The notes below the pieces were generated by a model. The model did no database searches. It had not been told where the DNA came from and saw only the letters and a list, made by a program, of their open reading frames with translations. From Bacteroidales bacterium (GTDB lineage Bacteria > Bacteroidota > Bacteroidia > Bacteroidales > UBA932), in the NCBI GenBank assembly GCA_009784635.1, contig WRBG01000001.1, positions 1 to 37,437 on the forward strand: a DNA stretch of 37,437 nucleotides, in the 5' to 3' direction. Positions 11,639 to 37,437 of this stretch are shown piece after piece. The position numbers were made by a program, and so were the translations under genes. The first letter of the stretch is position 1. Each line of letters starts with the position of its first letter.

Positions 11639-11712
11639 GCCGATGTAGCTCAGTTGGCCAGAGCAGCTGATTTGTAATCAGCTGGTCGGGGGTTCGAATC
11701 CCTCCATCGGCT
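11639..11712 (+). tRNA. tRNA-Thr (anticodon TGT)
   Basis: Hand-folded cloverleaf of 74 nt. Acceptor GCCGATG/CATCGGC, D arm GCTC..GAGC, anticodon stem GCTGA/TCAGC with loop TTTGTAA, and T loop TTCGAAT. CCA is not encoded. Confidence 0.9.
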
Positions 11713-11751
11713 CTGCATCTACAGAGGTGAAACGTAGTTCTTTAACATATC

Positions 11752-11834
11752 GGGGAGATACCAAAGTGGCCAACTGGGGCAGACTGTAAATCTGTTGTCG
11801 CACGACTTCGGAGGTTCGAATCCTCCTCTCCCCA
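11752..11834 (+). tRNA. tRNA-Tyr (anticodon GTA), long variable arm
   Basis: 83 nt. Acceptor GGGGAGA/TCTCCCC, anticodon loop CTGTAAA, long variable arm, and T arm GGAGG-TTCGAAT-CCTCC. Confidence 0.9.
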
Positions 11835-12012
11835 CAAACCAAAAACAACTCCTGCCGAGAGGCAAGAGTAACAAACGAAAAAATGTAGCGCAAATTCATT
11901 TGCAGGTAAATTTTTGAACTTGTTCCGGCAGAGCCGGGGGGTTGTTTTTAGTTTGAAGTCCCCCTTATAGGATCAGCGAGCGCAGCGAGCTAATCCTCTT
12001 TGACATACACAT

Positions 12013-12085
12013 GCGGAAGTAGCTCAGTCGGTAGAGCATCAGCCTTCCAAGCTGAGGGTCGCGGGTTCGAACCTCGTCTTCCGCT
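12013..12085 (+). tRNA. tRNA-Gly (anticodon TCC)
   Basis: 73 nt. Acceptor GCGGAAG/CTTCCGC, anticodon stem TCAGC/GCTGA with loop CTTCCAA, and T loop TTCGAAC. Confidence 0.9.
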
Positions 12086-12118
12086 CTACAAATCACTTCG
12101 CTCTGGCGAAGCGGACAG

Positions 12119-12190
12119 GCCAGCGTAGCTCAGGGGTAGAGCGCTTCCTTGGTAAGGAAGAGGTCGCGAGTTCAATTCTCGCCGCCGGCT
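12119..12190 (+). tRNA. tRNA-Thr (anticodon GGT)
   Basis: 72 nt. Anticodon stem CTTCC/GGAAG with loop TTGGTAA, and T arm GCGAG-TTCAATT-CTCGC. Acceptor GCCAGCG/CGCCGGC contains one A4:C69 mismatch. Confidence 0.85.
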
Positions 12191-12230
12191 CAAAATTAGT
12201 AAATAACAAACATTAAACATTATATCAATT

Positions 12231-13418
12231 ATGGCAAAAGAAACTTTTAAAAGGGACAAGCCGCACGTAAATGTTGGTACCATTGGTCACGTTGACCATG
12301 GCAAAACCACCCTAACTGCGGCTATCACCATGGTATTGGCAAAAAAAGGCCTTTCCGAGCAACGCTCGTTCGACTCTATTGACAACGCTCCCGAAGAAAA
12401 AGAGCGTGGTATCACCATCAACACTGCCCATGTTGAGTACCAAACAGCCAACCGCCACTATGCCCACGTAGACTGTCCGGGCCACGCCGACTATGTGAAA
12501 AACATGGTGACAGGCGCCGCTCAGATGGACGGCGCGATTATTGTGGTAGCCGCCACCGACGGCCCCATGCCCCAAACCCGCGAACACATTCTGCTGGCGC
12601 GTCAGGTGAACGTACCCCGTATTGTAGTATACCTCAACAAGGTTGACTTGGTTGACGACCCCGAAATGTTGGACCTTGTAGAAATGGAAGTACGCGAACT
12701 TTTGAGTTTCTACAGTTTTGACGGCGACAACGCCCCCGTAATCCGCGGGTCTGCTTTGGCCGCTCTGAACGGAGACGCCGAAGGAGAAGCCAAAGTGATG
12801 GAATTGATGGATGCTGTTGACTCTTACATTCCCATTCCTCCACGCGAAAACGAAAAACCTTTTGTAATGCCCGTAGAAGACGTGTTCTCTATCACCGGTC
12901 GCGGTACCGTGGCTACAGGACGTATTGAAACCGGCGTAATTAAAACAGGAGAAGAAGTGGAAGTCATTGGCTTGGGCGAAAAGCCGAGGAAAACAGTCGT
13001 TACCGGCGTAGAAATGTTCCGCAAAATCCTCGACAGAGGCGAAGCCGGCGACAACGTAGGTTTGCTCCTCCGTGGTATTGACAAAAAAGAAATCAAACGC
13101 GGACAGGTAATTGCAAAGCCCGGAACCATTACCCCCCACAAACTGTTCCAAGCTGAGATTTACGTGCTTAAGAAAGAAGAAGGCGGACGCCACACTCCTT
13201 TCCACAACAACTACCGTCCCCAATTCTTCCTGCGCACCCTTGACGTTACCGGTGAAATCCAACTCCCCGAAGGAGTAGAAATGGTTATGCCGGGCGATAA
13301 CGTATCTATCACCGTAGCTTTGATTTACCCCGTAGCCATCAACGAAGGACTCCGCTTTGCTATTCGCGAAGGAGGCCGCACCGTGGGCGCCGGACAGGTA
13401 ACCAAACTATTAGACTAA
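12231..13418 (+). CDS. tuf: Elongation factor Tu
   Basis: 395 aa. [17 protein letters not shown] and NKVD GTPase motifs, and Bacteroides-like over the full length. Confidence 0.98.
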
Positions 13419-13436
13419 TACCCGCATTTCAGGCCG

Positions 13437-13464
13437 GAGTTAGTCCGCTACGGACTAACTCTTT
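13437..13464 (+). terminator. Hairpin plus short T-run after tuf (terminator/attenuator or processing structure)
   Basis: Perfect 11-bp stem GAGTTAGTCCG (13437-13447) / CGGACTAACTC (13451-13461) with loop CTA, followed by TTT. It lies 19 nt after the tuf stop and 13 nt before tRNA-Trp. Confidence 0.5.
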
Positions 13465-13476
13465 GGTCTGCAATAC

Positions 13477-13547
13477 AGGGGCATAGTTCAAGGGTAGAAT
13501 AGCGGTCTCCAAAACCGTTGATGGGCGTTCGAATCGCTCTGCCCCTG
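13477..13547 (+). tRNA. tRNA-Trp (anticodon CCA)
   Basis: 71 nt. Acceptor AGGGGCA/TGCCCCT, anticodon stem GCGGT/ACCGT with loop CTCCAAA, and T loop TTCGAAT. This is the typical position between tuf and secE. Confidence 0.9.
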
Positions 13548-13648
13548 CTAATCTTAGAGGTTACGCAAAAAGATTAGTTAACATAGCCCAAGACCCGCTT
13601 CCAAGGTTAAGGGTATATAACAACAGTACAAAATTAACATGTACCTAA

Positions 13649-27134: not shown

Positions 27135-28160
27135 TCATTCTACTTCCCAAATGGCGCCGCTGCGGAGCAGGTCATCCATATTTTTGATTGCAGACTGTTT
27201 GCGAATCTCGCTTACCTGATCCCGCACATTGTCGTCGTAAGTCATGTCCTGTACAGAGCGAATCACTCCCAAGGCTATGGGCAGGTTGTCCGCAGTACCC
27301 ATATTCGCCAACATCATGTGTACGCCGGGATTGGGTTCACAGGCATCGTGTACCAGCAAATCCTGCGGGCCCACGCCGTTCTTGCCAATAGTTACGGCTT
27401 TAATCTTTAAGCCTTCCAACAGAAGTCCTTTGTCCTTATTTTTGCCAAAAATCATGGGTTGGCCGTGGCGGAGGACAATGGTACGGTCTCCCCTGTATTC
27501 TTTGTCCATAATCTCGGCATAGGCTCCGTCGTTAAAAATCACGCAGTTTTGGAGTACCTCGGTGACAGAAGTCCCGTCATGTTTGGCCGAAGCCACCATA
27601 ATCTCTTGGGTGAGCTTCATTTCTACATCCAAAGACCGCGCAAAAAAGGTACCGCGGGCCCCCAATACCAAAGAGCCGGGGTTAAAAGGATGCTCCACCG
27701 TTCCATAAGGAGACGTTTTAGTAACAATTCCCAAAGGGGAAGTGGGAGAATACTGACCCTTGGTCAGTCCATATATTTGGTTGTTAAACAGCAAAATGTT
27801 TATGTCAATGTTCCGGCGGATGGCGTGAATCAAGTGGTTTCCGCCAATGGCCATGGCGTCTCCGTCTCCGGTAATCTGCCAAACGGTAAGGCTGGGATTG
27901 GCCACTTTGATACCGGTAGCAATGGCAGAAGCCCGTCCGTGTATGCCATGGAATCCATAGGTATTCATGTAATAGGGAAAGCGGGACGAACAGCCTATTC
28001 CCGACGCAAACACAAAACGTTCGCGGGTATAACCCAGCGCCTGACAAATTTCGGGCATGGCCCGTTGCACGGCGGCCAAAATCGCAAAATCTCCGCAACC
28101 CGGGCACCATTTTACTTGTTGATTGCTTTTAAAATCTTGGGGCGTATATTGTAAATCCAT
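27135..28160 (-). CDS. korB: 2-oxoacid:ferredoxin oxidoreductase beta subunit (TPP-binding), probably 2-oxoglutarate-specific
   Basis: 341 aa. N-terminal WCPGCGDF and the TPP-binding GDGDAMAIGGNH. Substrate specificity is inferred from the two-subunit architecture and from Bacteroides annotation practice, not proven. Confidence 0.8.
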   Translation of the reverse strand: MDLQYTPQDFKSNQQVKWCPGCGDFAILAAVQRAMPEICQALGYTRERFVFASGIGCSSRFPYYMNTYGFHGIHGRASAIATGIKVANPSLTVWQITGDGDAMAIGGNHLIHAIRRNIDINILLFNNQIYGLTKGQYSPTSPLGIVTKTSPYGTVEHPFNPGSLVLGARGTFFARSLDVEMKLTQEIMVASAKHDGTSVTEVLQNCVIFNDGAYAEIMDKEYRGDRTIVLRHGQPMIFGKNKDKGLLLEGLKIKAVTIGKNGVGPQDLLVHDACEPNPGVHMMLANMGTADNLPIALGVIRSVQDMTYDDNVRDQVSEIRKQSAIKNMDDLLRSGAIWEVE

Positions 28161-28185
28161 AATTGTATCTGTTTTAGCGTTTGAA

Positions 28186-30018
28186 TTAGAAAATAGCTTT
28201 AACCGCGGTTACTACCTCGACTACGGTAAATGGTTGTCCTTGCACTTTATTGCATTGCAAATAGTTAAATCGAGTAAACTTGGTGCGCAGATAGTCTGCA
28301 AAATGTCCGCTGTTCAACTCGCAAACTATGATTTTTTTGAATCTGGCCAACACTTCTTCGGTATTCTTGGGGAGGGGATTGATGTAATCAAAATGAGCCA
28401 AGCCCGCGCTTTTACCCTCGGCCAGCAAGTGCTGAAGCGCCGAATAAAGATGTCCAAAAGTGCCGCCCCAGCCCACTATCAATACCTCGCCGCTTTGGTT
28501 GCCTATCACTTCCTGCAAAGGAATAAAGTCTGCCATTTTGGCTACTTTGGCCGCCCGCTCTTTGACCATACGCTCGTGTACCAAGGGGTCGGAAGACACG
28601 CTGCCGTTGGTGTCCTTTTCCAAACCGCCCACCCGATGCTCCAAGCCCGAAGTCCCCGGCAAGGCCCACTGACGCGCAAAACGCTTCTCATCGCGCTTAA
28701 ACGGCTGGTAAGCGCCCTCTGTTTGGGTAATAATCGGAGGGTGTATATCGGGATAATCGCTCATGTTGGGAATCCTCCAAGGCTCCGAGCCATTGCCCAA
28801 GAAGCCTTCTGTGAGCAATATCACCGGCATCATGTGTTCCATGGCGTATTTGCCTGCATAAAAAGCGGATTCAAAACAATGGGAGGGAGAACGCGCAGCA
28901 ATGGTGGCAATGGGACACTCTCCGTTGCGGCCATACAGCGCTTGGTACAGGTCGGTTTGCTCGGTTTTGGTGGGAATACCGGTAGAGGGGCCGCTGCGCT
29001 GTACGTTCACCACCACCAAAGGCAATTCGGTAATCATGGCCAAACCTAAAGCTTCTGACTTTAAAGAGAGGCCGGGGCCGGAAGTGGTGGTTACGGCAAA
29101 GTTGCCTGCATAGGCGGCGCCTATGGCGGTACATATTCCGGCGATTTCATCTTCGCATTGCAGGCTTTTTACGCCCAAATCTTTGCGCAAAGACAATTCT
29201 TCTAAAATACCGGTGGCCGGAGTAATGGGATAGGAACCGCAAAAGAGGGGAAGCCCCGCTTTTTCCGCGGCGGCAATCAAACCCCAAGCAGTGGCTTGGT
29301 TTCCGTTAATGTTCCTGTAGGTTCCTTTGGGCAATGGGGCCGGTTGCACGTAGTAGGTATTGGCTATGGCGTGTATGTTGCCGGCATAATGGTATCCATC
29401 TCTGAGTACCTTTTTGTTGACTTCGGCTATGGAGGGTTTTTTCTTGAACTTATCGTCAAAATAAGCCTCGGTATAATCCAAAGTACGGTTAAACAGGTAG
29501 TAACAAATTCCCAAAGCGAACATGTTTTTGCACCTCACAATGGCTTTTGCATCCATCCCGCTGTCTTTAAGGCTTTCCTTGGTAAGCGAAGTGATGGGCG
29601 CAAAAATAATGTTCCTGTCCTGCATGTTTAATTCCGTTATGGGGTCTGCGGTCTTAAATCCCGCCCGCTCCAATCCAACCTCGTCAAAGGTATCGGCGTC
29701 CAAAATAACGGTAGCCGTAGGCTTGGCCCATTTTGCATTGGTTTTAAGGGCAGCCGGATTCATGGCCACCAAAACGTCACAAAAATCTCCGGGCGTAGTA
29801 ATCCTACCGCTGCCAATATGCACCTGAAACCCCGATACGCCGGCGAGCGAGCCATGGGGGGCGCGAATCTCTGCCGGAAAATCGGGAAAGGTGGATATGT
29901 CGTTGCCAAACAATGCCGATGTATCGGCAAACAAAGTACCCGTAAGCTGCATACCATCGCCGGAATCTCCAACAAATCTAATGGCAACCTCGTGTACATC
30001 AATTACTTTATGCTGCAT
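28186..30018 (-). CDS. korA: 2-oxoacid:ferredoxin oxidoreductase alpha subunit (fused gamma-alpha type)
   Basis: 610 aa. N-terminal gamma-like block VGDSGDGMQLTG, then the alpha-domain motif GSYPITPAT. Confidence 0.8.
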   Translation of the reverse strand: MQHKVIDVHEVAIRFVGDSGDGMQLTGTLFADTSALFGNDISTFPDFPAEIRAPHGSLAGVSGFQVHIGSGRITTPGDFCDVLVAMNPAALKTNAKWAKPTATVILDADTFDEVGLERAGFKTADPITELNMQDRNIIFAPITSLTKESLKDSGMDAKAIVRCKNMFALGICYYLFNRTLDYTEAYFDDKFKKKPSIAEVNKKVLRDGYHYAGNIHAIANTYYVQPAPLPKGTYRNINGNQATAWGLIAAAEKAGLPLFCGSYPITPATGILEELSLRKDLGVKSLQCEDEIAGICTAIGAAYAGNFAVTTTSGPGLSLKSEALGLAMITELPLVVVNVQRSGPSTGIPTKTEQTDLYQALYGRNGECPIATIAARSPSHCFESAFYAGKYAMEHMMPVILLTEGFLGNGSEPWRIPNMSDYPDIHPPIITQTEGAYQPFKRDEKRFARQWALPGTSGLEHRVGGLEKDTNGSVSSDPLVHERMVKERAAKVAKMADFIPLQEVIGNQSGEVLIVGWGGTFGHLYSALQHLLAEGKSAGLAHFDYINPLPKNTEEVLARFKKIIVCELNSGHFADYLRTKFTRFNYLQCNKVQGQPFTVVEVVTAVKAIF

Positions 30019-30167: not shown

Positions 30168-31487
30168 TTACTGTTCGCTAAAAATCTTCTTCAAAGGCAG
30201 GAACAGCCGCTCAAGCAGCCGCAGGTCCTCGGTAACGATTTCTGCCGTGGCATACATTTCTTGGTAAAAGGGCAATTCCCTGCCGTAGGTAGTCATCAGC
30301 TTATGGGGAAAACCGACTTCCAAGGTATAGAAGTCGCCCGAAGGCACTACCGAAATATTGCCCACCACGCCCCGCACAATGCCGTATTCCGTGTCGGGGA
30401 AATTCAAAAAACGGACATTGACCGACTGACCGGGTTTTACCTTGCCCGAGCCGGCAATAGGCAATTGGGCTTTGCCGACTATTTGTCCGGTGGTTTGGGG
30501 AATGATGGTAAAGACCGTTTCGCCGGCAGTGATGTTTTGGTTTACGTTCCAGAATTTGCTGACGTCCACCGTGCCGTCCACAGGCGTTTTGAGTACGTAG
30601 GTCATCTCCCATATATTAAAGGCGTTCATGAGGTTGTCCAATCCGGCTTTTACCTCTGCCTGCAACTGCCCCGATTTTTCCAACTCCTGCAACCTCAAAT
30701 CGAGGATGGATTGCCGTAACTGGTCAATTTGTATATGGGCGTTGTCCAAGGCTATTCGGGACGACTCCAAACCATACCTGCTTTGCAGGAAACTCATGAC
30801 AATGGCGTCGTGTTCTGCGTCCGAAATCATTTTTTGGACGTGTAGGCTTGAATCCCGTACATATTGCCGGTGCGCCAGCGCGTACTGTTGCTGCACTACT
30901 TGGTACTGCTTCTGTAGTTTCTCAAGGTATTGCTGCTGTTTCAAGATTTGTTCCTCCATGGCGGCAATCCGCCGAGGATAATAGTTTAGCTCGGCAAACA
31001 GGCGATAATGACCGGCCGCGCGGATAAAGCCCGTATAGGAAGCCTGTATGTCGCCCAATTCGTATTTGCGGTTAAGTTCGTCCGACGTAAAATGAATATG
31101 GTTGCCGCCCATCATCTCATGCCACGCCTCCAACTGCGCCCTCAACGCTCCAACGTCATCGCTGTTTGCCGGATTCTCAACCACAGCCAAATAATCGGAT
31201 GCTTGTACCGACTGCTTGTCTGTCACCAACATTCTGGTGATTTTGCCATTGACGCGGGCGTTGACCTGCACCGGCGGATTGTGGGATGTTACCAATATGG
31301 GCGCCTCAATAATGTCCGGATATTTATAGAACCAACTGCCTGCAAACAATGTAATTACTATTACAACCAGCACGCTAATCCCACTCCGTAATATCCAAGG
31401 CGGAACCCATCCCAATACTTCCTGTACTTCCTCGCTGCGGAGTTCGGGCAACTTTTTAACGCCTACTATTTCTTTCTTAGTTCCCAA
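30168..31487 (-). CDS. HlyD-family membrane fusion/secretion adaptor protein
   Basis: 439 aa. N-terminal TM helix (ISVLVVIVITLFAGSWF), a long Gln/Leu-rich coiled-coil middle and a beta-barrel-like C-terminus. The start overlaps the ABC gene end by 11 nt. Confidence 0.8.
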   Translation of the reverse strand: MGTKKEIVGVKKLPELRSEEVQEVLGWVPPWILRSGISVLVVIVITLFAGSWFYKYPDIIEAPILVTSHNPPVQVNARVNGKITRMLVTDKQSVQASDYLAVVENPANSDDVGALRAQLEAWHEMMGGNHIHFTSDELNRKYELGDIQASYTGFIRAAGHYRLFAELNYYPRRIAAMEEQILKQQQYLEKLQKQYQVVQQQYALAHRQYVRDSSLHVQKMISDAEHDAIVMSFLQSRYGLESSRIALDNAHIQIDQLRQSILDLRLQELEKSGQLQAEVKAGLDNLMNAFNIWEMTYVLKTPVDGTVDVSKFWNVNQNITAGETVFTIIPQTTGQIVGKAQLPIAGSGKVKPGQSVNVRFLNFPDTEYGIVRGVVGNISVVPSGDFYTLEVGFPHKLMTTYGRELPFYQEMYATAEIVTEDLRLLERLFLPLKKIFSEQ

Positions 31488-33681
31488 GTTCCAACTGATT
31501 TTTTACCAATTCATAATAAATGCCGCGCCGGTTGGCCAACTCTTCGTGCGTGCCCTGTTCGGCAACCTTTCCCTTGTCTAATACCACAATGTTGTCCGCA
31601 TTCCGAACAGTGCTTAGGCGATGCGCCACCACCACCACCGTCCTGCCTCGGTAAAACTTTTCGAGCCGCTCCATAATTTCCCGCTCATTCTTTGCGTCGA
31701 GCGAATTGGTGGCTTCGTCAAAGAAAATAAACTCCGGATTCTGATACACCGCACGGGCAATCAGAATGCGTTGTCGCTGCCCTTGACTTATGCCGTTGCC
31801 TTCCATACCGATTTTGGTATTGTAGCCCAAGGGAAGGGCGTCAATAAAATCCCCGATGTTGGCCATGGAGGTCGCCTCTACCAACCGTTCCTTATTCATA
31901 AGTTCGTCGCTCACGGCAATATTGTTGGCAATGGTATCCGAAAAAATGAAGCCGTCTTGAAGCACCGCCGCCGTTTTGGCCCGCCACACATGGGGGTTGA
32001 TGTTCTGAAGGCTTGTTTCTCCGATTTTGATGCTGCCCTTATTGGGCGGATAAAACCCCAGCATGAGCTTTACCAATGTGGTTTTTCCACTCCCGCTGGC
32101 CCCCACAATAGCCGTTACGCGGTTCTGCGGAACCGTGAGGCTGATGCCGTCCAACACATAATCGCGGTCGGCGCCGTCATAACTGAAATACAAGTCGTTG
32201 ATATGAATGGACTTGTCCTTGGGCAAGGAAGTCATGCTTGCGGCGCTTTGCTGGTCTTCGTCCTGTTTCAAATGCACTTCGCCCAAGCGTTCAAGGCTGA
32301 TTTTTGCATCCTGCCAAGCGCGGGCAAAACTGATAAACTGCTCGATGGGCGCGCTCACCTGTCCCACTATATAGGTCAGCGACATCATCATTCCAAGGGT
32401 CATCTGCCCGTCCACCACCGCCTTGGCCGCAATAAACGAAATCAAGATGCCCGTAGTCTGTCCAAAAAATACCGACCCCAATTGCTGGTACTGACCCAAC
32501 GCCATACCTTGTATACTGATTTTAAATTGCTTAACCTTAATGCGCTCCCATTCCCAGCGTTTTTGTTTCTCGCAATTGTTGAGTTTGATTTCCTGCATTC
32601 CGGTAATCAATTGCACAATATTACTCTGATTGGCAGACGCTTGTGCAAAACGCTTAAAGTCCAATTTGCGACGCCAGCGCATGAACGACAGCACCCAAAG
32701 CACATACAGCGTATTCCCGACCAAGAACACCATCAATACCATCAAGTTATAATACGCAAGGATGGCGCCGAAGACGAAGAAGTTGAACAGCGAAAAGATG
32801 ATGTTGAACGACGAACCGGTAAGGAAGGATTCAATGCGCCCATGGTCGCCAATCCGCTGCATAATATCGCCCACCATTTTTGTATCGAAGTAATTCATAG
32901 GCAACCGCATCAGCTTTGCCAAAAAATCCGATATAAGCGCTATGTTGATGCGGGTATTCATGTGGAGCATAATCCAACCGCGAATCAAATCAACCGAAAG
33001 CCGCGCCACAAACAGCACCAACTGCGCAATCAAAATCAAGGTGATAAAACTCAAGTTATGGTTGCGGATACCGTTGTCTACCAGCGCTTGGGTAAGGAAG
33101 GGGAAAATCATCTGCAACAAACTGCCCGCGAGCATGCCCAAGGCCAACTGTATCAACTGAGACTTGTAGGGACGCAGGTAGCGGAAGAAGAATCCAATAT
33201 TCTTATCATCAGCCTTTTTCTCATCGTCCATATCGTAAAACTCCGGCCCGGGTTGCAGGGCAAGCACCGTACCGCAATCTTTGCCCTCGACCTTGGTAAC
33301 GCCCCAGCAACGCATAAATTCTTTCTCGTTGTATGTCGCTAATCCGCGTGCAGGGTCGGCAACGTAGACCATGGTTTTACCTCCTTTGCGCTTTTTGACT
33401 TTATACACCACCACAAAATGGTTCTGATTCCAGTGGGCGATACAGGGCAAAGGCACATCGTTGCACAGTTGTTCAAAATTGATTTTCACCCCTGTGGTAC
33501 GGAATCCTATGGTTTCGGCCGCATCGCTGATGCCCAGCATACTCACGCCCTCCCGCGTAATAAAACTCCGCTGCCGCAGGGTTTGCAGGGTATAGCTGCG
33601 GCCATAATACTTGGCCACCATGCGCAGACAGGCAGGACCGCAGTCCATGGCGTCTAACTGGAGGGTAAAGGGAAAGCGCAT
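31477..33681 (-). CDS. Peptidase C39-containing ABC transporter (bacteriocin/double-glycine peptide exporter)
   Basis: 734 aa. C39 motifs QLDAMDCGPACL (catalytic Cys) and NHFVVVY (His). A six-helix TMD, then Walker A GASGSGKTT, signature ISQGQRQRI, Walker B IFFDEATNSLD and H-loop VAHRL. Confidence 0.92.
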   Translation of the reverse strand: MRFPFTLQLDAMDCGPACLRMVAKYYGRSYTLQTLRQRSFITREGVSMLGISDAAETIGFRTTGVKINFEQLCNDVPLPCIAHWNQNHFVVVYKVKKRKGGKTMVYVADPARGLATYNEKEFMRCWGVTKVEGKDCGTVLALQPGPEFYDMDDEKKADDKNIGFFFRYLRPYKSQLIQLALGMLAGSLLQMIFPFLTQALVDNGIRNHNLSFITLILIAQLVLFVARLSVDLIRGWIMLHMNTRINIALISDFLAKLMRLPMNYFDTKMVGDIMQRIGDHGRIESFLTGSSFNIIFSLFNFFVFGAILAYYNLMVLMVFLVGNTLYVLWVLSFMRWRRKLDFKRFAQASANQSNIVQLITGMQEIKLNNCEKQKRWEWERIKVKQFKISIQGMALGQYQQLGSVFFGQTTGILISFIAAKAVVDGQMTLGMMMSLTYIVGQVSAPIEQFISFARAWQDAKISLERLGEVHLKQDEDQQSAASMTSLPKDKSIHINDLYFSYDGADRDYVLDGISLTVPQNRVTAIVGASGSGKTTLVKLMLGFYPPNKGSIKIGETSLQNINPHVWRAKTAAVLQDGFIFSDTIANNIAVSDELMNKERLVEATSMANIGDFIDALPLGYNTKIGMEGNGISQGQRQRILIARAVYQNPEFIFFDEATNSLDAKNEREIMERLEKFYRGRTVVVVAHRLSTVRNADNIVVLDKGKVAEQGTHEELANRRGIYYELVKNQLELGN

Positions 33682-33700
33682 GAGGGGTTAGGTTAAATGT

Positions 33701-34477
33701 TTAGGAACGCGAAGATAGGAATTTTATTTGGATTTCCTGTTTTGAGCTGCTTTCTGTCTTAAATCGTTCGTACGATGATATTCTTTTTTGTGCAGATGAG
33801 GCAAACGAACTGTTCATCGCCCTTGGATGCGAGAGGTGGAATAAGCACGTATCTACCCAATGTGTCTTGAAACCAAGCCGTTCAAAGCGATAGCACCTGT
33901 CAAAATCATCGTCTCCCCAGCCGTAGTGCTTTTCATTTTCCATGCCTGCGTAGATATATTTCTCCCTGTTTACCAATACCGCCCCCCCGACCAAACTACG
34001 GTGGTGCAGTAACTCCATTTTGTCCATATGCCGATAAAGAACGCGGATATCCTTTCGCTTCATAAAAAGAGTGCGGAGTATTTCGGATGTATTGTAACAT
34101 GTTCCATTATACGGCCAAGCAACATCTGCCGTTTGGTTGCGCAGCATAGTTACCGCTTCAAGTACTGCTTTCTTGTCTACCACCACATCGGTATCCCAGA
34201 TGGCTATGTACGGAGTGGCTACATTAGGCGTCATGGCGTTAAAACGCCGCGTCTTGTACAGCACGGGGTCTTTATCTTCTTTAAACAGATAGTTTATTTT
34301 TCTGTTTAGCAATCTTTTAAGAACTTGATTATTGTAACCGGATGCTTCAACTACAGTTACATTCGTGTCGAAATACTTGAGCAAGGCCTCCGTTACCGTT
34401 AGCGTATTTTCTAATCGTTGTACCGAATCAAGCCGTACCAAAATGAGGAATGTTATGTCCTTTAAATCTACCTTCAT
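33701..34477 (-). CDS. GT-A fold glycosyltransferase, beta-1,4-galactosyltransferase-like (GT2/GT7C-type motifs)
   Basis: 258 aa from the internal Met MKVDLKDITFLILV. DxD motif IAIWDTDVVV, and HYGWGDDDFDRCYRFERLGF resembles the WGxEDDD..R block of beta4GalT-type enzymes. The track ORF start at 34531 would overlap the upstream gene. Confidence 0.65.
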   Translation of the reverse strand: MKVDLKDITFLILVRLDSVQRLENTLTVTEALLKYFDTNVTVVEASGYNNQVLKRLLNRKINYLFKEDKDPVLYKTRRFNAMTPNVATPYIAIWDTDVVVDKKAVLEAVTMLRNQTADVAWPYNGTCYNTSEILRTLFMKRKDIRVLYRHMDKMELLHHRSLVGGAVLVNREKYIYAGMENEKHYGWGDDDFDRCYRFERLGFKTHWVDTCLFHLSHPRAMNSSFASSAQKRISSYERFKTESSSKQEIQIKFLSSRS

Positions 34478-34482
34478 ATCTT

Positions 34483-35949
34483 TTACGCATGTTTTGATTT
34501 TGCATCGGTTAGCGCCATGAATACACCGCAAAGTCCGGAAAACAGCCCTCTATTCCGCATCAAGTACTCCGGTTCGCGTTCCACTAAAGTCCATATATCA
34601 GACGATTCTATCTTGTCGATTATTTTGGTGGTCCATTGCTGCACATCATTTTCCGAAAAGTATTTTTGCAAGGCAGACAGCAACAGGTAGACTCCGGAAG
34701 CACCACCGTCTATGTAGATATTCCTGCTCCTTAATTCTTCATCAAGAATCATATTGACGTCGAGCCTGTCTTTAAGCAGTTGGATATGACTACTCCATCC
34801 GCCTACATCAATGTGCCGCATTACCGAATCCATACCCCACATCAAGAACAATCGGTTGGCATGAAGTCGTGGGAGCATAGACAGCACGTACATGCCGACA
34901 TCTTCCAATATCTTAACTATGCGGTAATTATAAAAATTTAACTCATATATCCTGCCAAGCACAAACAGAAATTGTGGCAACAGGTAGTTAAATCCGTAAA
35001 GTGGCGGTTCTTCAAAAAATGAAGCATCTGCTTTTTGATAGATATGGTTTACCGTTGCAATTATCAATTCTCGATAGAGGTACTCCGATTCGCTTCCCTC
35101 CTTTTGGTCATTAATCCGGAGGCACAAGTAATATAGAATCTGAATGAGTGACAGTGAGTTGATATTGTCCAAGTAAATTGAATAGCTCAACTGCTTGAAT
35201 ATCGCATTATCCACATCGCCAAGTATCTCGTTGGGACTCCCTTTGGCGTGGGACTCCTTTAGCAGGTAGCGAATAGCCAGCCCTATTCCCGCCAATCCAT
35301 TCATCAGATCTATACTCCTTGTTTGAGAGGCCTCATTAAAAACCTCCTCCAACAGGTTTTCGGCTACTTCCTGATACTTCTTGTTCTTTTCATGCCTCGC
35401 CAGCCAAAAGGCAAAGAGGCAAAAGCCCATTTTCCCGTTTGCCAAGCCTAAGGGGGCATCTTGGCTAAAGGAACTCATTAGGCGGTCCTTTAACGAAGGT
35501 GTTTCCAATAGTTGGTAGTGCGCAGCATCCCACCCAATTCCGAATTGATTCAATGGTTTCCATGCCCCTCCCCATTCAAGCCCTGCTTCGATACCCAGTC
35601 GACCAAAGGAAAGCCACAATTGGGCATTTTCCTCGGTAATCGCCCAAGGGATACTGCCATCGGCTAATATCGGTACAATATCGGCAGCAACTCCGTCTTG
35701 GTGAAGAGTGTGTCTAACTTTTGTAATAATTTGTTTCGCTTTTTCTGCGTCAAGTAAGTGCAGTCCAGCTATTTTGCGAAGACGGTTGATTTCTTCTATG
35801 CTCTCCCTGCCTTGGGCGTAATAAGCATCTTGAACTTCTTGTGTGCGAATGGTTTCAAGAATAAGGTATCGCAATCCGTTCCTGTCAAGCACAGAAAGAA
35901 ATGCTTCAAATATCGGTTGCGCTTCTGGCTTTAATAAATTGATTTTCAT
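34483..35949 (-). CDS. Fusion protein: N-terminal M15 (VanY/endolysin-type) zinc peptidase plus C-terminal LanC-like alpha/alpha-repeat domain
   Basis: 488 aa. The N-terminal ~150 aa carry ETIRTQEVQ, the H-x6-D motif TLHQDGVAADIVP, WGGAW and GWDAAHYQL, a complete M15 zinc ligand set. The C-terminal ~320 aa carry spaced Gly-rich helix starts resembling LanC repeats: GLANGKMGFCLFAFWL, NGLAGIGLAIRYL, DGGASGVYLLLSAL and GLFSGLCGVFMAL. The canonical CHG zinc motif was not found. No signal peptide. Confidence 0.55.
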   Translation of the reverse strand: MKINLLKPEAQPIFEAFLSVLDRNGLRYLILETIRTQEVQDAYYAQGRESIEEINRLRKIAGLHLLDAEKAKQIITKVRHTLHQDGVAADIVPILADGSIPWAITEENAQLWLSFGRLGIEAGLEWGGAWKPLNQFGIGWDAAHYQLLETPSLKDRLMSSFSQDAPLGLANGKMGFCLFAFWLARHEKNKKYQEVAENLLEEVFNEASQTRSIDLMNGLAGIGLAIRYLLKESHAKGSPNEILGDVDNAIFKQLSYSIYLDNINSLSLIQILYYLCLRINDQKEGSESEYLYRELIIATVNHIYQKADASFFEEPPLYGFNYLLPQFLFVLGRIYELNFYNYRIVKILEDVGMYVLSMLPRLHANRLFLMWGMDSVMRHIDVGGWSSHIQLLKDRLDVNMILDEELRSRNIYIDGGASGVYLLLSALQKYFSENDVQQWTTKIIDKIESSDIWTLVEREPEYLMRNRGLFSGLCGVFMALTDAKSKHA

Positions 35950-37235
35950 AACATAATTACTCCAAATTGAGAGGAAAACACTATAGTACTGCTAATACTA
36001 TTATAGTCACTGTACATTATAAGCCCTTTACGCAGCATTATACGTGCATATCGCTGAATATGAAGGTGTAGATTTTTTTGTAACTGTTCCGTTTTGAGCA
36101 AGAGCGCTTCATAAAAATGCTTTGGGCGTGGGATGATATAAGTAAGTACCAAACTTTCGGTCAGAGAAAGTTCGGAATATGGCTTGCCAAAGTAAAGCAG
36201 GCTGGCATGATGCAGTCCATATACATTGGGGGCAAACTCAATCAAGTTCAAATACAATTCTAAAATATCTTCTTTTTCTATCTTGAAATAGTTCTCTATC
36301 AACAACGCAATCACACACTCTTCCACCTTGCGAAGTATGTTCTTATCATGGTTAAGAAAAAGATTTCGTACCAATTGCATAGTGATGGTGCTGGCGCCTC
36401 TCTCGAATTTCATGCTGTTGAAGTTGGCCAATAAAGCAAGGTCGATGCCATAAAGATCTATTCCTTTATGAATCCCAAAATTGGGGTCTTCCGTACATAT
36501 TACGGCATTGGCTACATGCTCCGGAATCGTTTTGTAGGGAATATAGCCTTCAGCTGTAAAATAGCTGCCGCCGTGTTTGGCAAAGAGGGTATTGAGTAGA
36601 AATTGCTTGTCAACTTGGACACTATTTTCGTGGGTTAGCTCAAAGTCATCCGCTTTTATGGAAGCATTAAACCAAACCGGCTGCGCACTATTTTTAGCGT
36701 AAGCAAGGATAGCATTGATTAGCAGGGGAATATCCGAATAGAAATTTTGGAGATGGCTAAATATCAAGTTATCACCCATGATAGAAATGTATTTGTCCCA
36801 ATTTAAACTTAACTCAGAAAATACTTTTATTTGTCCGGCCTTTCGCTGAGTTTGTACTATTAACATTATTTCGTTGGCTTCAATATGGATAGTTGCATTT
36901 TTTCTATTGACTCCGAGGGTAATAAGAATATCCGATAATGCAAACTTCTTTTTAGCAATAATTTCCCAATTTGTGCTAAAGTGCTCAACCATAATCTCTC
37001 CTACCAACCAGCCCCCGGTTATGCTTTGCCATAAAGACAACTTGAAGATTATACGTTCTACGCGGACTATCTCTTTCTGTTCACGGCTGGTTATAACCAC
37101 ATTACTTAACAGCAACTTTCTAAGACCAAGCAGACGTACTGTTTGAACGGAAACGGAAAGCCCAAACCTGCCTAATAGTCGTGTAGACAATGATTGAATA
37201 CGTGAGGAGATTTTATGTTCGAGGTAACACTTCAT
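35946..37235 (-). CDS. Atypical GT51 (peptidoglycan glycosyltransferase) domain protein with an unknown ~230-aa N-terminal domain
   Basis: 429 aa. From about residue 233: IPEHVANAVICTEDPNFGIHKGID (EDxxFxxHxG), RGASTITMQLVRNLFL (GGSTITQQ) and RKVEECVIALLIENYFKIEKEDILELYLNLIEF (RKxxE...ILE.YLN). Both GT51 catalytic Glu positions appear present. The N-terminal region has no motif I recognise and no clear TM anchor. A 4-nt ATGA overlap with the downstream gene. Confidence 0.65.
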   Translation of the reverse strand: MKCYLEHKISSRIQSLSTRLLGRFGLSVSVQTVRLLGLRKLLLSNVVITSREQKEIVRVERIIFKLSLWQSITGGWLVGEIMVEHFSTNWEIIAKKKFALSDILITLGVNRKNATIHIEANEIMLIVQTQRKAGQIKVFSELSLNWDKYISIMGDNLIFSHLQNFYSDIPLLINAILAYAKNSAQPVWFNASIKADDFELTHENSVQVDKQFLLNTLFAKHGGSYFTAEGYIPYKTIPEHVANAVICTEDPNFGIHKGIDLYGIDLALLANFNSMKFERGASTITMQLVRNLFLNHDKNILRKVEECVIALLIENYFKIEKEDILELYLNLIEFAPNVYGLHHASLLYFGKPYSELSLTESLVLTYIIPRPKHFYEALLLKTEQLQKNLHLHIQRYARIMLRKGLIMYSDYNSISSTIVFSSQFGVIML

Positions 37236-37250
37236 TTTTCCATGCCGCTA

Positions 37251-37437
37251 TTACTCTTTACTCTCCCGCGCCTTTTTAGACTTGTAATGTTTTAGCAAAA
37301 AGTCATATACCACCGCCTCGTGCATACGTTGTTTGCTGCGGAACCAGCGGTTCATCATCATGTGGGTGTAGCTCGATAACAGGGCATTGAGCTTTTCGCC
37401 TTTTTCTACATGCTCCATGATTTGACCGGCAATCGGC
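37251..37437 (-). CDS. 3' end of an unidentified CDS entering from the right edge
   Basis: Hand translation of the minus strand in the frame ending at TAA (37253-37251) gives PIAGQIMEHVEKGEKLNALLSSYTHMMMNRWFRSKQRMHEAVVYDFLLKHYKSKKARESKE with no internal stop. It is absent from the track only because the remaining Met-initiated part is under 60 aa. It lies 15 nt upstream of the GT51 gene. Confidence 0.4.
   Translation of the reverse strand, partial: PIAGQIMEHVEKGEKLNALLSSYTHMMMNRWFRSKQRMHEAVVYDFLLKHYKSKKARESKE

Follow-up and report, generated by a model that had tools for sequence, protein, structure and literature searches.

The six minus-strand open reading frames (ORFs) at the end of the 37,437-nt stretch of Bacteroidales contig WRBG01000001.1 studied here (the window) are probably the 3′ part of a chromosomal class-I-type lanthipeptide cluster, with export by a C39-peptidase ATP-binding cassette (ABC) transporter and an HlyD adaptor, that is cut by the end of the contig and carries an accessory cassette of three genes. 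We place the probability of this reading at about 0.62. The cassette encodes a glycosyltransferase of family GT51 without a membrane anchor, a fusion of an M15 peptidase domain with a LanC-like domain, and a GT-A glycosyltransferase. Loci of relatives that were compared with the window carry L-numbers. The features are listed in the order of transcription.

37251..37437, minus: LanB elimination subunit (LanB_C), C-terminal 61 residues, partial ORF (PF14028, TIGR03891)
35946..37235, minus: anchor-less GT51 peptidoglycan glycosyltransferase paralogue, 429 aa (Transgly, fold, motifs)
36561–37235, minus: N-terminal amphipathic helix and beta-rich domain of the GT51 protein (residues 1 to ~225)
35949–36560, minus: GT51 domain of the same protein
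34483..35949, minus: M15–LanC-like fusion protein, whole gene (two domains, residues 1–150 and 151–488)
35500..35949, minus: probable M15 (LAS-type) zinc peptidase domain, L-Ala-D-Glu endopeptidase-like, fusion residues 1–150 (Peptidase_M15_4, motifs)
34483..35499, minus: LanC-fold domain without zinc ligands, fusion residues 151–488 (LANC_like, Foldseek)
33701..34477, minus: beta4GalT-like GT-A glycosyltransferase, 258 aa (Glyco_tranf_2_3 and Glyco_transf_7C, both sub-threshold; conserved motifs)
31477..33681, minus: C39-peptidase ABC exporter (peptidase-containing ABC transporter, PCAT), 734 aa (Peptidase_C39, ABC_membrane, ABC_tran)
30168..31487, minus: HlyD-type membrane-fusion adaptor, 439 aa (HlyD_3, TIGR01843, one N-terminal membrane anchor)

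Cluster identity at the contig end

The partial ORF at the edge identifies the cluster. It matches Lant_dehydr_C (PF14028) with 41.3 bits against a cut-off of 24.4 (E 2.7e-10), covering the final 43 positions of the profile (213–255 of 255), and also matches TIGR03891. It is 77% identical to residues 228–283 of a stand-alone 289-aa LanB elimination subunit encoded in L011. The preliminary description of this stretch had stated that a LanB or LanM dehydratase is lacking, which was incorrect. Because the public contig (46,974 bp) stops 19 nt past the end of the window, the seeming absence is an edge artefact. The LanB elimination domain, of which the last 61 residues only are included, is the class I hallmark present in the window. 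The canonical LanC zinc site (Cys-Cys-His) and the catalytic His are absent from the only LanC-type domain in the window. From synteny with the relatives described below, we infer a LanB glutamylation subunit upstream of the break and a Cys/Ser/Thr-rich precursor with a Gly-Gly leader somewhere in the genome. A canonical LanC could also lie upstream, as in L015 and L167–L170, though none was seen in L010 or L011. The earlier remark that no precursor gene is visible agreed with our own examination of the window, in which neither a leader model (considered below) nor a regular-expression search, whose pattern was not validated on known precursors and was perhaps too strict, found a Gly-Gly-leader precursor.

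All six ORFs were recovered in the positions listed, as in the preliminary description, and the operon-like junctions reported there were each verified base by base. The edge ORF ends in a TAA stop and is followed by a 15-nt gap (37236–37250) and the ATG of the GT51 gene, the stop of which overlaps the start of the fusion gene as ATGA (35946–35949). A gap of 5 nt (34478–34482) separates the fusion and GT-A genes and one of 19 nt (33682–33700) the GT-A and ABC genes, and the ABC gene runs 11 nt into the HlyD gene (31477–31487), across its TTG start. A sigma-70 promoter scan of the gene string found 12 sites against 12.9 expected, a result of little weight either way as Bacteroidota promoters fall outside the model, and terminator-like sites were not enriched in the gene string (5 against 8.4 expected). 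Rfam and tRNA scans gave no matches inside the cluster, and an anti-phage defence library searched against the window gave generic ABC-ATPase matches only.

The remainder of the window is core chromosome, including recJ, an aminoacyl-tRNA synthetase gene, purA, dxs, a tRNA cluster, tuf, nusG, rpoB, rpoC, gdh and korAB. At 11639–13548 the genes for tRNA-Thr, Tyr, Gly and Thr stand together, with tuf and tRNA-Trp next to them and then nusG, probable ribosomal-protein genes (not scanned) and rpoBC. This standard conserved arrangement places the cluster in the core chromosome. Two His/Arg-rich antisense ORFs on the plus strand, one of 573 aa (31621–33342) inside the ABC-exporter gene and one of 308 aa (28123–29049) inside korA, resemble shadow ORFs rather than genes; the longer coincides with strongly negative GC skew.

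The G+C content is 0.388 for the GT51 gene, 0.440 for the fusion gene and 0.431 for the GT-A gene (33701–37235), compared with 0.499 for the exporter genes (30168–33681) and 0.489 for the rest of the window (1–30000). Because the G+C content of the three genes is low and LanB_C is directly followed by the exporter gene in L168–L170, this suggests that the three accessory genes are a cassette that was gained separately and inserted between LanB_C and the exporter.

The exporter has the C39 catalytic residues, membrane domain and ATPase motifs of a Gly-Gly exporter. Peptidase_C39 (119.6 bits), ABC_membrane and ABC_tran all match, the similarity to the TIGR03796 and TIGR01193 bacteriocin exporters is sub-threshold, and Q8, DC14G, NH88FVV, the Walker A motif GASGSGKT and the Walker B motif FFDE can be read in the sequence. 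The adaptor matches HlyD_3 (47.7 bits) and TIGR01843 (E 4e-31) and has one hydrophobic segment at residues 27–56. In such clusters the C39-ABC exporter and HlyD protein remove the Gly-Gly leader and then export the peptide.

In published class I clusters of Bacteroidetes the leader follows the pattern LxLxKx5L and closes with Gly-Gly, a C39 protease is encoded and LanB is split, as it is for pinensin (PMC7268733). The window resembles the pinensin-type clusters in its separate LanB elimination subunit and its C39-ABC and HlyD genes, and its relatives add the LxLxKx5L...GG leaders and canonical LanC. It differs in having the GT51, M15–LanC-like and GT-A genes between LanB_C and the exporter, and in that its only visible LanC-type domain is without zinc ligands. 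The preliminary description had not recognised the set from characterised classes. This holds for the three-gene insert, which is uncharacterised, and not for the backbone, which is a known kind of Bacteroidota class I lanthipeptide cluster.

The two proteins most similar to the fusion protein (74% and 62% identity) are encoded on short contigs with a gene order like that of the window. LanB_N lies directly upstream of LanB_C in L010 and L011, and the closest LanB_N clade (62–69% identity) comes from complete class-I clusters. The full class-I set of precursor, LanC, LanB, C39-ABC transporter and HlyD was found in L015 and L167–L170, and the LanC proteins of these complete relatives have the WCYG and CHG motifs. 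Precursors were found in L015, L069 and L167–L170; those of the relatives consist of an LxLxKx5L...GG leader followed by a Cys/Ser/Thr-rich core, for example MKKQLKLNKELIAALGKNEENRIYGG. The gene orders of the most informative relatives are as follows.

L011: S41 fragment, LanB_N (745 aa), LanB_C (289 aa), GT51 (425 aa), M15–LanC-like, GT-A
L012: LanB_C (cut by the contig), GT51–polysaccharide deacetylase fusion (740 aa), M15–LanC-like, GT-A
L010: S41, LanB_N, LanB_C, LanC-like, GT-A, GT2, GT2, 400-aa protein
L167: HlyD, GT51, GT2, 400-aa protein, GT2, S41, LanA (74 aa), LanC, LanB_N, LanB_C
L168–L170: LanA, LanC, LanB_N, LanB_C, C39-ABC exporter, HlyD

One to three erythromycin-esterase-like (PF05139) genes, or a gene for a similar 417-aa protein, adjoin the lanthipeptide genes in L169 (788–6694), L170 (4510–6237) and L015 (11800–13053), and a TolC-like outer-membrane gene is also present in L169 and L170. 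These may be a recurrent accessory or immunity part of Bacteroidales lanthipeptide clusters. Genes for S41 (C-terminal processing) peptidases were found near LanB or radical S-adenosylmethionine (SAM) maturases together with GT51 in L010 (130–846), L011 (195–494), L167 (6626–8365) and L173 (1911–3392 and 7437–8405). The L011 copy is a 99-aa remnant only, which hints at decay in some copies.

The three cassette proteins

The domain assignments of the preliminary description stood up to profile searches of Pfam, NCBIfam and the PDB. In the GT51 protein, Transgly matches residues 229–377 with 154 bits, behind an N-terminal region of ~225 aa that has no confident family match. The GT51 domain matches the Aquifex PBP1a glycosyltransferase domain (3nb6) with E 1e-29 in a PDB sequence search, and an AlphaFold2 model of the protein, with a predicted local distance difference test (pLDDT) score of 92.7, gave a target-normalised Foldseek TM-score of 0.84 to the same structure. 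The catalytic residues of motif 1 (E249, D250), motif 2 (G280, S282, T283, Q287) and motif 3 (R302, K303, E306) are invariant in 46 homologues. The fold and motifs of GT51 are thus present and the membrane anchor is not. An N-terminal hydrophobic segment was found in none of 46 GT51 family members (the window protein and 45 homologues). The GT51, fusion and GT-A proteins all lack a hydrophobic segment (maximum 19-residue Kyte-Doolittle value below 1.3); for the two peptidoglycan-type enzymes the preliminary description had already noted the lack of an anchor or signal peptide. The protein shares with class A penicillin-binding proteins (PBPs) and MtgA the fold and the EDxxF, GxSTITxQ and RKxxE motifs. 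It differs from them in lacking an anchor and a transpeptidase domain, in its beta-rich N-terminal domain of ~225 aa, and in that anchor-less GT51 genes are found inside peptide-product clusters and not with cell-wall or division genes. To our knowledge, GT51 enzymes are known only as membrane-anchored peptidoglycan polymerases acting outside the cytoplasmic membrane.

The N-terminal domain of the GT51 protein had no PDB match by sequence profile or by a Foldseek search with the whole model. Single weak matches to DUF748 and YhdP were seen, and our guess is that it may have an AsmA-like lipid-binding fold. No relative of the protein closer than 38% identity was found in a metagenome scan. Of the candidates scored, 1297 proteins fall into the subfamily with E 1e-10 or lower, although longer, more distant GT51 families are included in this number. 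C-terminal fusions are frequent in it, to M15_4/VanY, Amidase_3, Amidase_2 or polysaccharide deacetylase domains and weakly to CHAP, so that in some relatives the M15 domain is joined to the GT51 protein and not to the LanC-like protein. Of the longer GT51 paralogues, 58 have a complete 5′ end, and 48 of these carry a clear N-terminal membrane anchor. One GT51 family of ~630–720 aa that is widespread in Bacteroidota (L093–L166, for example L093 8651–10801 and L100 8708–10612) has an N-terminal anchor, a long N-terminal domain and a C-terminal GT51 domain. It has neither a transpeptidase domain nor peptide-cluster genes as neighbours, and seems to be the membrane-anchored equivalent of the anchor-less forms that are linked to clusters. 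We also considered the GT51 and M15 proteins as cargo of the exporter and rejected this, as neither N-terminus has a Gly-Gly leader.

The N-terminus of the fusion protein matches Peptidase_M15_4 with 23.4 bits (E 8.9e-5), under the Pfam cut-off of 25. The motifs of the family are legible in the sequence (QGR, H82-x-x-G-x-A-x-D89 and D141-x-x-H144). The model of this domain has low pLDDT, as the alignment offers just three sequences for the region. Its PDB matches are both weak, to the L-alanyl-D-glutamate peptidase Ply500 (2vo9, E 0.02) and to ChiX (5opz, E 0.067). It appears to share with these L-Ala-D-Glu endopeptidases the LAS metal motifs and, with ChiX, the lack of a signal peptide. It differs from them in being joined to a LanC-like domain and in having no lysis or holin genes nearby.

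The LanC-like domain matches LANC_like (PF05147) with 45.6 bits against a cut-off of 23.2. The glycines of its GxxG repeats (G172, G175, G218 and G221) are invariant in the family, in keeping with the alpha/alpha-toroid fold of PF05147, and a Foldseek search with the model retrieved LanCL2, GCR2, LanCL1, MadC and NisC with E ~1e-4. Aligned with canonical LanC, the domain has MWGMD where the WCYG cysteine is expected, IDGG where the CHG pair is expected and residues other than His at the SHG histidine, and no Cys or His is conserved among 28 homologues. In a set of 1.84 billion proteins, the family profile retrieved 363 cluster representatives with E 1e-30 or lower. In the PDB, the sequence that it matches best is the cyclase domain of class III LanKC (E 4e-4), which is likewise zinc-less. 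The zinc-less LanC fold is shared with this domain (ThurKC, PDB 8sao/8sam). The window protein differs in that it is fused to M15 (other family members stand alone), has no lyase or kinase domains, aligns over 85 residues and is partnered by a glycosyltransferase. An identification of such domains as glycoside hydrolases or "endoglucanases" has been suggested (PMC10352776). We rejected it for this domain, as LanC and LanCL proteins come far ahead of the toroids of glycoside hydrolases and polysaccharide lyases in the Foldseek ranking.

The GT-A protein of the window scores 21.4 bits with Glyco_transf_7C, under the cut-off of 23, and is sub-threshold with Glyco_tranf_2_3 as well. Its orthologue in L021 (Bacteroides heparinolyticus DSM 23917, a cultured strain; NZ_SLXB01000005.1, 95456–116400) passes the former cut-off with 44.5 bits; the genes of this locus include an exporter, a radical-SAM enzyme, GT2, LanC-like, GT-A and GT51. 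A beta4GalT7 structure (4irp) was matched in a PDB sequence search with E 0.011, and WD95-x-D97, YGWG188-x-x-D191 and H214-L-x-H217 are at least 95% conserved in 41 homologues. The DxD motif and the WGWG(E/D)D loop of beta4GalT-like GT-A enzymes are therefore both present.

Recurrence of the cassette in Bacteroidota

The preliminary description had set chance adjacency against a functional unit, the distinction being whether the genes co-occur in other genomes. They do, in many Bacteroidota genomes and in several gene orders, and this supports a functional unit. A scan for the LanC-like family with one genome per species returned 74 loci, of which 73 were scored. Nearly all were from Bacteroidota, with a few from Balneolaceae and one outlier encoding a canonical LanC. 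The GT-A gene directly adjoins the LanC-like gene on the same strand in 32 of the 73 loci, and is its conserved downstream partner. A C39-ABC exporter was present in 39, a radical-SAM maturase in 13, a split LanB in three and GT51 in two, and many of the loci encode Cys-rich peptides with Gly-Gly leaders.

Anchor-less GT51 genes were found in 13 contexts when near-identical loci were grouped (the window, L003–6, L007–9, L011, L012, L021, L023, L087, L088, L089, L167, L171/172 and L173/174). A C39-ABC exporter, HlyD, LanB or radical-SAM enzyme is encoded within 10 kb in 12 of these. The exception is L087, a 5-kb contig with nothing shown beside the GT51 gene. Such neighbours were found in none of 74 loci with longer GT51 paralogues from the same scan, which served as the control (Fisher p 7e-14); this value is not corrected for phylogeny and the co-occurrence counts are not phylogenetically independent, which tells against our reading of the linkage. 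L090–L092 contain a longer anchor-less GT51 beside exporter genes; L091 and L092 encode LanB as well. The gene order varies by lineage and includes exporter-HlyD-GT51, LanC-like-GT-A-GT51 and LanB_C-GT51-LanC-like-GT-A. The linkage is thus kept independently of the order. GT51 is directly downstream of the exporter and HlyD genes in L003–L006, L007–L009, L088, L089, L092 and L167, and sits among modification genes in the window, L011, L012, L021 and L023. Extra GT2 genes accompany the cassette in L007, L010, L021, L167 and L171.

Loci bearing the cassette are often mobile or bordered by mobile DNA. In L171 (1999–20827) and L172, GT51 and GT2 genes are beside the exporter on an element with an integrase, an AbiEii gene, a Toprim primase and an excisionase-like helix-turn-helix gene. 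Transposase remnants flank L010 (2–133 and 8686–9203), and an IS21 fragment was found in L007 (9344–9493).

Part of this association has been noticed before by bioinformatics. The Bacteroidales "rSAM + LanC-like + pseudo-rSAM" biosynthetic gene clusters BGC3–5 of Fernandez-Cantos et al. (2023) contain a LanC-like protein without the C...CH zinc motif beside carbohydrate-active enzymes; BGC4 has a C39-ABC exporter and an HlyD-type adaptor, and BGC3 and BGC5 are reported to be without this exporter (PMC10352776). The LanC-like proteins are of the same zinc-less kind and Gly-Gly-leader precursors are shared. The window differs in that its LanC-like gene is in one operon-like string with LanB, and PMC10352776 mentions no GT51 or peptidoglycan hydrolase. 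The same study reported that zinc-less LanC-like proteins never occur with LanB and that LanB is absent from Bacteroidales (PMC10352776). The window, L010, L011, L012, L015 and L059 contradict this. Of the Bacteroidales radical-SAM Gly-Gly peptide systems (TIGR04148–04150 type), neither the radical-SAM enzyme nor its pseudo-radical-SAM partner is encoded in the window; both are in L003, L019, L072 and L088, which share the cassette. In its layout L003, with radical-SAM and LanC-like genes, an exporter and an adaptor, resembles these BGCs. In the open-access literature, no characterised system with the gene set of the window turned up, and no paper was found that describes a GT51 or peptidoglycan hydrolase as part of such clusters.

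Relatives of the radical-SAM type encode peptides with an MKKLKKL...GG leader and a Cys-rich core in L003 (10305–10589), L020, L032, L042, L052, L057, L058 and L067. In addition, L003 encodes a stretch rich in Ser and Thr, GGSTTSANDSANN, on which glycosylation could take place. L069 (9899–19579; Ancylomarina salipaludis SHSM-M15, NZ_SAXA01000001.1) comes from a cultured strain and its cluster looks complete. It contains a zinc-less LanC-like gene (395 aa), a Gly-Gly-leader precursor (12500–12712), LanB_N, LanB_C, an exporter and HlyD, with no canonical LanC within 10 kb, and judged from these genes L069 is a candidate for zinc-independent cyclisation.

Proposed function and alternatives

The mechanism we prefer, tentatively, is that the cassette tailors a leader-bearing peptide in the cytoplasm before export, with the GT51 enzyme using lipid II. 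The GT51, M15 and GT-A motifs are retained and the enzymes look catalytically competent. All three proteins would act in the cytoplasm on the peptide while it still bears its leader. The GT-A enzyme would place a sugar on the core peptide. This step fits the cytoplasmic peptide glycosyltransferases of the exporter-dependent glycocin systems (SunS/ThuS GT-A with a SunT-type C39-ABC), in which a Gly-Gly-leader peptide likewise leaves through a C39-ABC transporter and which serve as our working model for it. The analogy is incomplete, as the GT-A enzyme of the window is beta4GalT-like (Glyco_transf_7C) and not a SunS-type GT2, and LanB and GT51 are additional. The LanC-like domain may be the peptide-binding partner of GT-A, or it may be a zinc-independent cyclase catalysing addition to dehydro-residues. 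The latter option is supported by L069 and L059, each with a split LanB and an exporter, because the only LanC-type gene within 10 kb is zinc-less in both. The GT51 enzyme would take lipid II at the inner membrane face and add a MurNAc(peptide)-GlcNAc unit, or a short glycan, to a GlcNAc-type acceptor, since an anchor-less enzyme would reach only lipid II of the inner leaflet and transfer of a unit to such an acceptor is then the simplest constructive role. The M15 partner (elsewhere an amidase or deacetylase) would trim the stem peptide. The extra GT2 genes fit this theme of glycan building. In its most specific form, in which anchor-less GT51 enzymes graft a peptidoglycan disaccharide-peptide or short glycan onto the sugar installed by GT-A and the LanC-like protein, and the product is trimmed and exported as a peptide-muropeptide hybrid, the proposal is rather unlikely. 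The preferred mechanism combines two suggestions of the preliminary description, tailoring of an exported peptide and assembly of a lipid-II-derived unit; its third, self-protection, becomes the main rival.

Several observations weigh against the reading of the locus given above and the mechanism built on it. No LanB glutamylation subunit, canonical LanC or precursor is visible on the contig, which ends at LanB_C, and no small ORF in the 37-kb window matches the LanA leader model built from the relatives. In L010 and L011 an S41 peptidase gene precedes LanB_N in place of LanA-LanC, and L010 is bounded by insertion-sequence remnants; for these reasons a window-type cluster could be precursor-less or decaying. 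The LanC-like/GT-A pair is also found without any GT51 and without LanB, and in many loci GT51 comes after the exporter genes and not after those for the maturase. The predicted location of the cell-wall-type enzymes in the cytoplasm derives from hydropathy only. Both substrates of a GT51 reaction are normally lipid-linked, and we know of no peptide modified by a GT51 enzyme. The hydrolase partners differ in bond specificity (amidase, endopeptidase and deacetylase), a variety that fits a diversity of tailoring and a generic destruction of cell-wall precursors equally. The position of GT51 after the exporter and the interchangeable hydrolase cut both ways between tailoring and its rivals.

In the case of self-protection, the exported peptide would target lipid II or peptidoglycan synthesis, and the GT51 enzyme and hydrolase would bind or consume lipid II or remodel precursor stem peptides in the cytoplasm. 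We consider this somewhat improbable, but it has precedents in the M15 enzymes VanX and VanY of cytoplasmic vancomycin resistance and in resistant "target copies" inside biosynthetic clusters. Resistance or target genes are classically recognised as second copies of an essential cell-wall enzyme that are linked to a cluster and atypical in G+C content. GT51 often closes the gene string behind the exporter, a common place for immunity genes, and the swappable hydrolase domains suggest that generic neutralisation of stem peptides suffices. No conventional immunity gene is visible among the Pfam and NCBIfam matches of the window. However, a cytoplasmic anchor-less GT51 could not replace glycan polymerisation in the periplasm, and amidase or L-Ala-D-Glu cleavage of the entire precursor pool would harm the cell. 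Peptides exported through the exporter and HlyD do not pass through the periplasm and are normally inactive while they bear a leader, and self-protection leaves the tight pairing of GT-A with the LanC-like gene and the extra GT2 genes unexplained. Less likely still is that GT51 and M15 locally remodel peptidoglycan for assembly of the exporter-HlyD-outer-membrane channel or for release of its cargo. The model here is ChiX, a signal-less L-Ala-D-Glu endopeptidase required for chitinase secretion in Serratia and one of the two PDB matches of the M15 domain. The loci with GT51 directly after the exporter and HlyD genes are consistent with such a role, and lytic enzymes typically exchange amidase, M15, CHAP and deacetylase domains. 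Against it, a holin or another path into the periplasm is missing, none of the GT51 family members has a signal peptide, GT51 is a synthase with strictly conserved synthase motifs, C39-ABC/HlyD systems are not known to require dedicated peptidoglycan remodelling, and GT51 lies among modification genes in the window and the four loci named with it above.

The remaining alternatives dispense with the lanthipeptide or with the unit itself. A new system unrelated to lanthipeptides, in which a Gly-Gly exporter and cell-wall enzymes make or trim a muropeptide product with no dehydratase, is very improbable. The LanC-like/GT-A pair and the anchor-less GT51 do occur in LanB-less radical-SAM clusters, from which it follows that the function of the cassette is independent of dehydration chemistry. 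The Lant_dehydr_C match already contradicts such a system in the window, where the LanB elimination subunit is encoded 15 nt upstream of GT51; syntenic relatives encode both LanB subunits, and the GT51 contexts contain LanB, radical-SAM enzymes or C39-ABC exporters in all but one case, with Gly-Gly-leader precursors in several. That ordinary cell-wall genes are next to a bacteriocin exporter by chance might be suspected, given that the window is otherwise housekeeping chromosome, but it is scarcely credible and already refuted by the co-occurrence. The linkage recurs in several gene orders over a range of LanC-like identity from 74% down to 34%, the genes of the window are joined by overlaps or by gaps of at most 19 nt, and the proteins are specialised anchor-less paralogues and not the housekeeping forms.

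Two published views are corrected by these findings. LanB occurs in Bacteroidales, and zinc-less LanC-like proteins, earlier deemed unrelated to lanthipeptides, can share an operon-like string with LanB. Bacteroidota are a dominant gut phylum and very few such peptides from them have been characterised. A GT51 subfamily that has lost its anchor, has kept every catalytic residue and is tied to peptide-product clusters beside exchangeable stem-peptide hydrolases suggests that the chemistry of cell-wall precursors and that of peptide natural products are connected in this phylum in a way not recognised so far. If a lipid-II-derived decoration is made, it would be new chemistry, and with a peptide-muropeptide hybrid a cell-wall polymerase would for the first time be seen to serve a purpose other than cell-wall synthesis, and peptides to be modified in a new way. 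If the cassette instead confers immunity in the cytoplasm, the peptides would be cell-wall-targeting antibiotics active against Gram-negative bacteria.

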